A stretch of DNA of 64,000 bases, taken from Chara braunii. Its lineage: Eukaryota > Plantae > Charophyceae. Each line of letters begins with the position of its first letter. The stretch's first letter is position 1. Under the pieces are notes generated by a model. That model saw nothing but the letters and a program-made list of their open reading frames with translations. It did not search any database and had not been told where the DNA came from. The stretch spans positions 3,250,798-3,314,797 of the forward strand of contig BFEA01000023.1 of NCBI GenBank assembly GCA_003427395.1. The letters run 5' to 3'. Shown in pieces: positions 57,938 through 62,100 of this stretch. The position numbers were made by a program, and so were the translations under genes.

Positions 57938-59009
57938 GCCAATACCCTTTCAAGGGTATCCGCCCTGTTTTTTTTTTTGCAAGTAACAGAAAACAGTTTT
58001 GGTTTAAAGTTGAAGTATACCGCGCTAAGCGCGGTTGCGTCTGTAATTGCATTGACTGGGTGGTTGACCACAATAGCGTAGAGAGTGTGTGGGCGCGCAT
58101 ACTTGAGGCGCACGTGATTTTTATTTATTGATGACATTTAAAGAGCCGGCGTGATCGCCGGTCAAATTTTATTTATTTATTTATTTTTGATTTATATTAG
58201 GATTAATTAATATGGAAATTTTGATTAGTACGTCTGATCGAGACACGCACATGAGGGTGGAGAGCGGCCTCGGCAACGGTGGGAATTTCTTTATAATGAA
58301 CTGGGTGCGCAACGTCGAAGGATCGGCGGGGCCATCCCCGTCCCCTCCTCCTGGCTTTGCCATCGGCTGCGTCGGGATGGGGCCAGCGGTTATCTTTCCA
58401 AGTTTCTTCTAATTATTATTTATTGCCATTAGTGTTTAATTTTATGATTTGATTTTTCGCAAGTAGGGAATGACATCGGCCCCGGATGGCTGCCACGGTA
58501 ATTGGGAACCTTGGGCACGCGCCCCCTTTTTCTTAACGGTCCCGACGGGTTCCTGCATGTTTGGGGCGTTGGCGAAAGTCTTTCGTCCCGCCTATCTAGG
58601 GGAAAGGGGCCGAGGAATCAACATGAAAGGCCAACGGGTGTGTGCTAGGCCAACGGGTGTGTGCTTGGCCTACAACGCTGGCAGGTGCCAACTGACGGGC
58701 ATACGGGCCTAGTCATGCTGTCCGCTGTGACAGTTTTGAGTGTGAGCATGCCCGTAGAGGCTCGGGTATAGGAGCAGAGGCAGGCAATAGGCAGCAGCGG
58801 GCGGGGCCACAACGCAGAGGAGTAGCGGGCGGTGGGTCCGATCGGGCAGCCTTAGATAGCAGTAGGGGAAAGGCGAATGAATCGGGGCAGAAAGCCGGGC
58901 GGCGCCAGGCAGCAGTGGGTATACAGCGCAGCAGCTAGACAGCGCAGCAGAGTGCTACGACAAAGGGGGGCACTGTGGCAGAGGCCACAACGATACTGCC
59001 ATGGTAATT

Positions 59010-59054
59010 GGTCGTCGGGCTGGGGTACGGAGGTGATAGACTCACCGGGCCGTT

Positions 59055-59085
<31 letters not shown>

Positions 59086-59195
59086 AGATAGCTGGAGCTG
59101 TTGAACGTCTGACTTGAGTATAGGGGCAAAGACTAATCGAACCGTCTACTGGCTGGTTCCCACTGCAGTTTTCCCTGAAGGCAGCAGGCGCTGTG
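59010..59195 (+). pseudogene. Tandemly duplicated 25S/28S rRNA-derived fragments
   Basis: TAGTAGCTGGTTCCCTCCGAAGTTTCCCTCAAGATAGCTGGAGCT (59055-99) and CGTCTGACTTGAGTATAGGGGCAAAGACTAATCGAACCGTCTA (59106-48) match the conserved LSU domain II segment (from memory). Confidence 0.85.
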
Positions 59196-62100
59196 TATCG
59201 AGGTGGCGAAGCGTGGCGATCGTTTCGTCTGTCGGGCTGGTCGGAGTAACCGGGGAAGTGGTTGCATTGAGGCACAGACAGGCCGAGAGGAAGGGGAGAA
59301 CAGAGACAGAAAGCGGAGTGTCAGACAGGCAGAGCGAGGCAGCCTAGCTACGGGCTAAGGCAGGCAGCGGACGGACAGGCGCTAAGGCTGAGGGGTGGTG
59401 CAGCAAAAAGAAGAACGGATCTNGACGGCCTANCGCGNGAGGTGCATGCGCAGAAGGAAGGAAGGCTATGGCGGAGTTAACATCGCAGTTTTCGCCCAAT
59501 CCTTGACGAAATCGGGCGATCCAAGTGTCGAAATTGGGGTTTTAGACTAAGGCGAATGCGTTGGAGGTGTTAGTTTTAGGAGGAAGTTAGTAGAATAGGC
59601 GGTAGAAGAAAGGATGGCCGCACGAAGCTATGGCGGAGGGAGAAAACGATGGGAGTGTAAAATTTGAATCTCGCTCGATCCTCGATGGATTCGAGCGAGA
59701 TAGAATGTTAGATAGGGGTTCTTGGGTGGGGCGACCACGATGATGGACTCCGAAAGGTGAGTAAGAAAGTGTGGGATGAGTTAGAACAGAGATATGCTGC
59801 GCGAAGTTGTCAAAGCTTGGATATGGTAAAGGGAAGGAAGACGATTGTGCGCCTGTTCGTTAATAGAAACAGGCGAAGAGGGAATCGTTCCTGGAGTTTT
59901 GGAGGGAAGCGAACCCGAACATGAACTTAGTTTGAGCAAAGAGTTAGTAGGATGTAAGTTAGTGAGGAAATGGAGTGCGTGGATGAAGTCGGGAAGGAAA
60001 GCGGAGGAGAGTAAAGGTTAGTTAAATCGACCGATTCGTGACCGTTTCTGACGGTCTAAGATAGTAGACTAAGGTTATAAGGTGCTACGAAGCAGTTGGT
60101 AGAACTAGATTCCGGGGAGGGACGTTAGTTTGTGTGCTGCGAGGAAATAAGGTTGCGCCAGGGAGTAGAGTGGTAAAGTATCAATGTATCTAACCGGAAT
60201 CTTGGGATAAATACGTTCCATTCTTTTTTTTTTTTATATCGGTAAAAATAGCGGAGGACATCTGCGGGATTGGAGACTTACCTGTTGACCCTTGCGCCGC
60301 TCTGTTGTTGGCTGAAACTTGCGCGNNNNNNNNNNNNNNNNNNNNNNNNNNNNNNNNNNNNNNNNNNNNNNNNNNNNNNNNNNNNNNNNNNNNNNNNNNN
60401 NNNNNNNNNNNNNNNNNNNNNNNNNNNNNNNNNNNNNNNNNNNNNNNNNNNNNNNNNNNNNNNNNNNNNNNNNNNNNNNNNNNNNNNNNNNNNNNNNNNN
60501 NNNNNNNNNNNNNNNNNNNNNNNNNNNNNNNNNNNNNNNNNNNNNNNNNNNNNNNNNNNNNNNNNNNNNNNNNNNNNNNNNNNNNNNNNNNNNNNNNNNN
60601 NNNNNNNNNNNNNNNNNNNNNNNNNNNNNNNNNNNNNNNNNNNNNNNNNNNNNNNNNNNNNNNNNNNNNNNNNNNNNNNNNNNNNNNNNNNNNNNNNNNN
60701 NNNNNNNNNNNNNNNNNNNNNNNNNNNNNNNNNNNNNNNNNNNNNNNNNNNNNNNNNNNNNNNNNNNNNNNNNNNNNNNNNNNNNNNNNNNNNNNNNNNN
60801 NNNNNNNNNNNNNNNNNNNNNNNNNNAAGGGGCAGAGGCGTACGTGCGGAATGATGCTTTGCCCACCCGCCGGTCGATTGACGGAAAGAGTGCAGAGGTC
60901 GACCGTGAAGAGGGAGGCTTATCTGTAAGGCGCTGCTCTGTCTGGCCTAATGGAAGGGGCGGGCAGATGCGTCAAGTACCAACTGGCGGTACCAAGGAAG
61001 AGGGAGGAGCAAGGGTGCAGAAACTGCAGCTTACCTGCTAGCCGATGCCCTTGCCACAGGCTCAGGTAATGGGGAATGACAGGTGGGGCATAAGCACTTA
61101 CCTGTGGGCTTGAGCAGGGCGAAGGGGGCTACAGGTAGAAGGTTTACCTGGCCAAGACTATGAACGTCTCGTCGGGCGCGGAGAGCAAGGAGTGATTAGC
61201 GGAGTTGGAGGTTGTTGGTAGATGGCAGGCCGATTGTCCCATCAAACATGGGATGGAACCAGACGGCTATGAAGGTGCAACGGTGCTTGCGGATAGTATA
61301 CTTAGTGATTGGGTCGTGAAGAGGAGCCAACGAGGTGTGACTTGGAGGAACGGGCAACCTATTGCTGCAATTCGAAGTGTCGCCAAAGAATCAGCAGTTG
61401 GGGTTTTGGTTTTAGTTGGTCGACGACTATGTGCTTTGGCCACCATTGCGGGGCCCCCAGGCGATCAAAGATAACAAGGCCCTCTCCAGTGAGATTGAGG
61501 GTACCCCTCTTGTATATGAGAGTCTCAACCCTTCTGCTTCTACCCTTCTCACTCTAAGTCTAGTCCTGTGGTTCTAAGAGGAAGGCGGCAGGCGGGATTG
61601 CAACCCGTAGGTCCGTATCAAGACTTTGTGGGGAGTCCACCCACCGATTACGGGAGCTCTGCAGGAACTCAGGAGGAGTTCTGGAGGCAGGGAACCTTCA
61701 GGTAAATCATTTTTATCTGTATAAACCCCACTATTACCCATGTTTGCCTATCTCCCTGCAGTATGACTTTTGTATGCATGCGTTTGTCCCTATGGTTTTT
61801 GCTTTCTCTTCAGGACTAATCAGACTAATTGGAAAGAATGTGTGAGAGTGAAGCCTAAGTTTCTACTTTGTTCTGATTGAAAGTAGACTAAGGATGAATT
61901 GGGGGAGGGTGAAAGGAAGGTAGACTGCATGCGTTTGACCGGGTCAACCAAAGCCTGAGCATTGTTTCTACTGTGAATGGCTCAGGGCTATGTTTATTTG
62001 GATGTTTTATGAAGGACCAGACATTGTTTCTACTGTGAATGGCATGGTCGCTGTGTTTATTTGATTGTTTTCTTGGGAGCCAGACATTGTTTCCACTGTG

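Follow-up and report, generated by a model that had tools for sequence, protein, structure and literature searches.

An rRNA-Derived Tract with Nested Age Layers behind an LTR-Type End in Chara braunii

Results

Mobile elements across the window

The window analyzed, i.e., the whole 64-kb stretch of Chara braunii contig BFEA01000023.1, is repeat-rich draft sequence with gaps, in which single Ns also occur around 59424-59439. Its long open reading frames (ORFs) resemble those of Penelope-like elements, and the nearest Atlas cluster of the ORF at 8450-10183 is eukaryotic and mostly Streptophyta, based on few records. Two decayed Penelope-like elements lie on the reverse strand (7964-11849 and 14898-17850), with an upstream zinc-knuckle-like ORF, a GIY-YIG-like region, and a reverse transcriptase (RT). 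This layout fits the Chlamys elements of C. braunii as described in the accessible part of the source (PMC8557442); short motifs from the window gave 0 matches in the accessible Chlamys supplement, where cut cells and line wraps may hide some.

A 4.7-kb element with TG..CA termini and a 4-bp target-site duplication (17856-22576, reverse strand) is inserted in a Penelope-like ORF, splitting ORF1 of a Chlamys-type element. It represents either a solo LTR or a non-autonomous element, and its 5' part recurs at 47513-48434. Elsewhere, terminal inverted repeats of ~520 bp (88%) bound 49475-53613, which is probably a DNA transposon, while a 123-bp tandem repeat (62941-63624; 4.4 copies) has a motif resembling that of a 54-bp repeat at 1112-1616. 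Near the window start, a Type III hammerhead ribozyme (215-269, reverse strand) scores 48.7 bits, at the Rfam gathering score. At a distance of 160 nt from it, and adjoining a (GA)n run, lies a large-subunit (LSU) rRNA fragment (428-511, forward strand; best E 6.6e-10) unrelated to the tract described below; this fragment may belong to the end of a Penelope-like element or of a retrozyme.

An LTR-type end and a structured leader

On the forward strand, positions 57818-57920 form an LTR-type 3' end with a terminal CA. An LTR was already proposed in the first-pass annotation, and the assignment of position 57920 as an LTR-type end is supported because 83 of 101 positions (57818-57918) are identical to the 3' end of the TG..CA element at 17856-22576, which carries a target-site duplication. 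A TGG motif resembling a primer-binding site (PBS) follows at 57925-57935, 4 nt past the LTR end, and forms one arm of a hairpin at 57924-57942. The motif is one of two PBS-like matches in the window and a candidate PBS with a plausible position; 0 tRNAs were found in the window. A 15-nt stretch of the same hairpin (57929-57943) recurs at ~19480 inside the 4.7-kb element. The leader at 57921-58400 contains three perfect 7-bp hairpins, and the fold of 57900-58400 is stable relative to shuffled sequence (z -3.13; 0 of 100 shuffles as stable).

Other parts of an LTR element were not found. In 12 read-through frames of 53600-64000, no retroelement Pfam family was detected at E 0.1, and a 500-N gap (60326-60826) may hide the coding region. 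Within 56500-64000 there was no further match to 57818-57922 that could represent a second LTR, and neither the 5' start nor a target-site duplication was found for the LTR copy ending at 57920.

Extent and identity of the rRNA-derived tract

Behind this LTR end lies an rRNA-derived tract of ~590 bases (~58605-59192), larger than stated earlier. Comparisons were made against 108 metagenome rDNA loci, fetched by a 21-nt anchor of the second LSU copy; Rfam confirmed three of them as rDNA. LSU coordinates are given relative to the first anchor base (position 0 at 59128, approximately Rfam position 926). The closest reference, L108, is a plant-type LSU. Four of the reference loci (L008, L040, L026, and L002) are 20-30 kb metagenome contigs with plant-type rDNA pieces and many C-to-T and G-to-A changes; L008 carries partial LSU and small-subunit (SSU) pieces on opposite strands.

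That two LSU copies lie here in tandem, as proposed in the first-pass annotation, was borne out by three kinds of search. The Rfam model LSU_rRNA_eukarya matched 59040-59200 at E 3.3e-5, spanning model positions 889-997 of 3401, with a score of 27.5 bits that does not reach the gathering score of 50; wider Rfam scans missed this match. In BLAST against the 108 loci, copy 1 reached a best E of 1.2e-25 and copy 2 one of 1.7e-17, and with a 13-locus plant-type LSU profile, E was 2.4e-25 (58971-59099) and 5.1e-19 (59106-59192). Copy 1 extends over 58966-59099 (with its start at 58966-58972; LSU about -70 to +63) and copy 2 over 59103-59192 (with the profile match from 59106; LSU -23 to +63). The tandem pair proposed at 59010-59099 and 59106-59195 thus stands, with the start of copy 1 moved ~40 nt upstream.

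No LSU continuation above background was found after 59192, nor were extra LSU copies above background at 58571-58594 and 59212-59231, and a 16-nt repeat (58490/58996) was only marginally top of 2,454 windows. Against the metagenome rDNA loci, the tract showed no internal transcribed spacer (ITS) or other spacer match. No A-run of at least 5 occurs until 59405, and direct repeats flanking the tract are no longer than 7 nt and do not exceed background, leaving no convincing target-site duplication.

An old LSU layer

The oldest LSU-derived unit (58605-58872) is roughly collinear with LSU -253 to +3 and includes a 19-nt tandem duplication as well as a patch at 58729-58764. The best 3 of 1,228 200-nt windows compared with LSU -290 to -75 start at 58601, 58701, and 58801 (scores 17.25, 16.5, and 14.0; background 9.06, sd 1.06), while G+C-matched windows reached at most 12.75 and reversed references 10.5, vs 17.25; sub-parts of the unit are weakly significant (p 0.014-0.045). 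The LSU-like patch noted earlier at 58737 was upheld as 58729-58764 by local shuffling against three of four references (p 0.002-0.004), though it reaches only E 1.1 when searched window-wide; the fourth reference scores best at 58873-58929. A second motif, at 58868, had also been listed as LSU-like. Its placement as a patch from downstream LSU sequence (LSU +80) fell outside the top 10 of 2,454 windows and did not rise above background; the motif lies where two older LSU units meet. The second of these units, 58873-58929, corresponds to about LSU -226 to -165, with 42 of 57 ungapped columns identical, and is strong against L108 and weak against the other references.

Two further old pieces flank a younger core: the 5' half of copy 1 (58966-59054; LSU -70 to +18), with 25 differences in 84 columns, and the 3' half of copy 2 (59149-59192; LSU +21 to +63), with 12 differences in 44. 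Within the old half of copy 1, 23 of 24 substitutions are found in less than 10% of 81 rRNA variants. The tract consists of fragments only, and this rarity speaks against a functional or variant rRNA gene. Taken together, the old sense-strand LSU copy is ~320 nt long, partly duplicated, and 25-30% diverged.

Six of the 12 differences in the old 3' half of copy 2 fall inside a 15-nt exact match to SSU rRNA (59177-59191, forward strand; SSU position 438), which overwrites LSU +48 to +62. This stretch agrees with SSU at 15 of 15 positions and with the replaced LSU sequence at only 9 of 15, and Markov simulations gave a chance of 0.002-0.004 in a post hoc search; we therefore dropped the reading of this motif as merely decayed LSU. 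The SSU origin flagged in the first-pass annotation is probably real on this sequence evidence. Two of four SSU copies examined carry the 15-mer exactly. One other SSU 15-mer occurs in the window (54077-54091, forward strand); it is exact to position 1063 of locus L021 only and was treated as background.

A young, permuted core

The two copies had been described as differently decayed. Decay is indeed unequal, yet not copy by copy: a young core (59055-59148) sits across the inner halves of both, with the older halves outside. This core is circularly permuted, differs from L108 at 3 of 89 columns, and is nested within one older copy that has decayed to a divergence of about 25-28%. Its first half (59055-59099; LSU +19 to +63) has 1 difference in 45 columns, compared to 25 in the first 84 columns of copy 1 (change point +19; permutation p 4e-4). 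A 6-nt junction (59100-59105), with no exact match in the metagenome contigs, joins LSU +63 back to LSU -23. The second half (59106-59148; LSU -23 to +20) has 2 differences in 44 columns, of which the anchor's 21 columns are identical by reference selection (the Rfam consensus gives the same pattern, and the first half is unaffected), compared to 12 in the last 44 columns of copy 2 (change point +21; permutation p 0.038). The anchor had no match in viral contigs.

Core and old halves differ at 3/89 vs 28/111 columns (Fisher p 9.5e-6, counting only substitutions rare among the 81 rRNA variants, with the SSU patch excluded and change points chosen post hoc), which speaks against one capture followed by uniform decay. 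In rRNA coordinates, the two switch points are no more than 2 nt apart, at +19/+20 (rough chance, 0.06). The simplest reading of these sequences is that a 92-nt, near-perfect permuted piece was set into one old copy at +19/+20, with two bases repeated at both ends. A derived G-to-A change at +50 is common to the core and the old half and recurs in 6 of the metagenome loci. The first-pass annotation would have taken fragments as diverged as their flanks for a one-off rRNA pseudogene; this misses the main point, i.e., that the tract contains at least two age layers, unlike such a pseudogene, for which even divergence would be expected.

Searches for function and relatives

The region 58960-59200 showed no stable fold (z +0.89, no better than shuffles). 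Its sense frame contains 1 stop vs at least 4 in the unmutated mosaic (331 of 20,000 simulations as low; p 0.017), in a test chosen after seeing the pattern; over 58600-59500, six stops remain in the same frame. None of 10 ORFs had an exact match. Among 467 candidates of a protein search, the single match was a generic antisense-rRNA ORF that does not extend beyond the rRNA-derived stretch, and a search for family copies via protein space yielded 0 matches among 180 and 1,181 candidates and 0 in 1.84 billion representatives. Lacking a stable fold and any protein relative beyond the rRNA-derived stretch, the tract offered no evidence for the role in translation, packaging, or silencing that had been suggested for it.

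Discussion

Proposed capture of host rRNA by an LTR element

Sense-strand LSU pieces, and probably also an SSU piece, are found 0.7-1.3 kb past an LTR-type end that is followed by a PBS-like motif, an arrangement best read as capture of rRNA pieces by an LTR element. The tract likely belongs to the leader of the element ending at 57920. The earlier proposal of capture in sense orientation and leader position is partly supported, with neither gag/pol nor a second LTR found that would link the tract to a complete element. With moderate confidence, we propose that the tract derives from host LSU rRNA, comprises at least two age layers, likely arose by repeated RT template switching onto abundant rRNA fragments, and is likely functionless. 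The stop avoidance in the sense frame runs counter to the last of these points.

In this scheme, the RT of an ancestral element would have switched onto co-packaged LSU rRNA and then back, and the captured piece would have decayed while being inherited. The decayed piece could then have served as a homology landing pad: the RT would quit the element RNA at +20, copy rRNA to -23, jump to +63 of an rRNA fragment, copy this to +19, and rejoin the element. A further microhomology patch would have introduced the SSU 15-mer. Two rRNA donors, all in sense orientation and with no ITS or spacer match, would suit mature RNAs as the source; these features, together with the nested ages, the lack of a tail or target-site duplication, and the LTR end and folded leader upstream, fit repeated template switching. 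Microsimilarity-driven template switches are documented in LTR elements (PMC5131818, in the part accessible), as is retroviral patch repair with host RNA (PMC4997597, likewise); end-to-end template jumping appears, in the accessible portions of the literature searched, for non-LTR RTs only. The mutation spectrum was rejected as a sign of RT passage and favors no RNA route, as it equals the window background (20 transitions/17 transversions vs 107/66 in four window repeat pairs; p 0.46).

Old-layer divergence (25%) exceeds half of the LTR-end divergence (p 0.001; p 0.13 if all 18 LTR-end differences arose in the copy ending at 57920), which suggests that the old layer predates insertion of this element, provided that the differences are split between the two LTR copies. 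We infer inheritance through a family; indirect protein searches revealed no second element copy.

Alternative explanations

A single crossover with a circle would also be expected to yield a permuted insert whose switch points coincide. DNA-level events at one locus could have built the tract: an old rDNA-derived insertion would later have been hit, through a single crossover at +19/+20, by a small circle of rDNA or by break repair that drew on the rDNA array, with the LTR neighborhood incidental. The absence of relatives from the collections searched (metagenome contigs and protein sets) would agree with such an origin, as would the unrelated LSU fragment at 428-511, by which rRNA debris is not rare in the window. 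However, an SSU patch whose source lies ~3.7 kb away in the rDNA unit, in sense and with no spacer, is easier to obtain from RNA, and divergence in the old layer exceeds half of that at the LTR end; we consider a DNA-level origin unlikely. Slightly more doubtful is a family-wide module under selection, in which one capture was duplicated and its junction-spanning core retained because of a role as RNA (in ribosome recruitment, packaging, or as a small-RNA decoy), or the tract was recruited into a sense ORF lying upstream of gag. Duplication of one copy and subsequent selection would fit the shared G-to-A change at +50, which, like the paucity of sense-frame stops, is a weak sign, and the leader position points the same way; against these stand the unstable fold, the lack of protein relatives other than the generic antisense-rRNA ORF, the six stops across the wider frame, and the post hoc nature of the stop test.

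An assembly or polishing artefact, with high-copy rDNA reads merged into a draft contig, is very improbable. The core is 97-98% rRNA, and the Ns and gaps nearby mark this as draft sequence; however, the old layers carry differences where rRNAs are invariant, which rDNA reads cannot supply, and such reads would replace one continuous stretch and not just the inner half of each copy. A processed rRNA pseudogene produced by target-primed reverse transcription (TPRT) was ruled out given the lack of poly(A) and of a target-site duplication.

A bolder and less likely proposal is an rRNA-capture ratchet, by which the LSU/SSU leader mosaic of an LTR retrotransposon family in a charophyte-like alga would be repeatedly refreshed from host rRNA, possibly for ribosome recruitment or a new ORF. 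Were the tract family-wide, its layers would document one recombination after another between retrotransposon RNA and rRNA, and rRNA co-packaging would become testable; if confined to a single locus, the tract would be a well-resolved piece of rRNA debris.

Comparison with known systems

In Cassandra and Ajax TRIMs, the LTRs contain an internal promoter of 5S type (PMC10946416, accessible part). The tract likewise represents rRNA-derived sequence in an LTR-type element; however, decayed LSU/SSU pieces lie here outside the LTR with no promoter role. The parallel to Cassandra drawn in the first-pass annotation breaks down at the trait that defines these elements, an LTR-borne 5S promoter, with no 5S rRNA match in the window or in 57000-60500. 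In the accessible part of the same source, the table of rDNA-derived transposons (Table 2) comprises 5S promoters, SINE28, and spacer repeats, none of them an LSU/SSU piece within an LTR element. The term "rRNA" occurs 0 times in a 2026 review on the capture of genes by plant transposable elements (PMC13317346), and no such case surfaced in literature searches, which covered mostly open-access papers.

Mammalian SINE28, a mobile or dispersed repeat of LSU origin and in this respect alike, derives from the LSU 3' end and is transcribed by Pol III (PMC4994717, accessible part). In contrast, the tract comes from about Rfam 670-990 and has no tail; its match at Rfam 889-997 of 3401 and the missing tail rule out identity with SINE28. 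PLE-X of Selaginella, which targets 28S rDNA, also associates a retroelement with 28S in early-diverging streptophytes, and related Penelope-like elements occur in our window; there the element sits in rDNA, whereas here rRNA sits in the element, and the PLE-X target flanks (Fig. S5) are absent from LSU -300 to +120 (PMC8557442, accessible part). Human 28S-retroelement fusions, as far as described in the sources accessible, similarly link a retroelement to 28S fragments (50-482 nt, in sense) through template switching or ligation; they are one-step TPRT products, for which nested age layers are not described.

LTR-mediated retroposition and retroviral patch repair share with the proposed origin of the tract the use of microhomology to switch onto host RNA that was co-packaged, more than one donor, and later copying, and differ in that their donors are mRNAs and small noncoding RNAs, with "rRNA" absent from the accessible main text of PMC5131818 (PMC5131818, PMC4997597, accessible parts). 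By analogy with such systems, the tract would work like known retroelement capture of host RNA.
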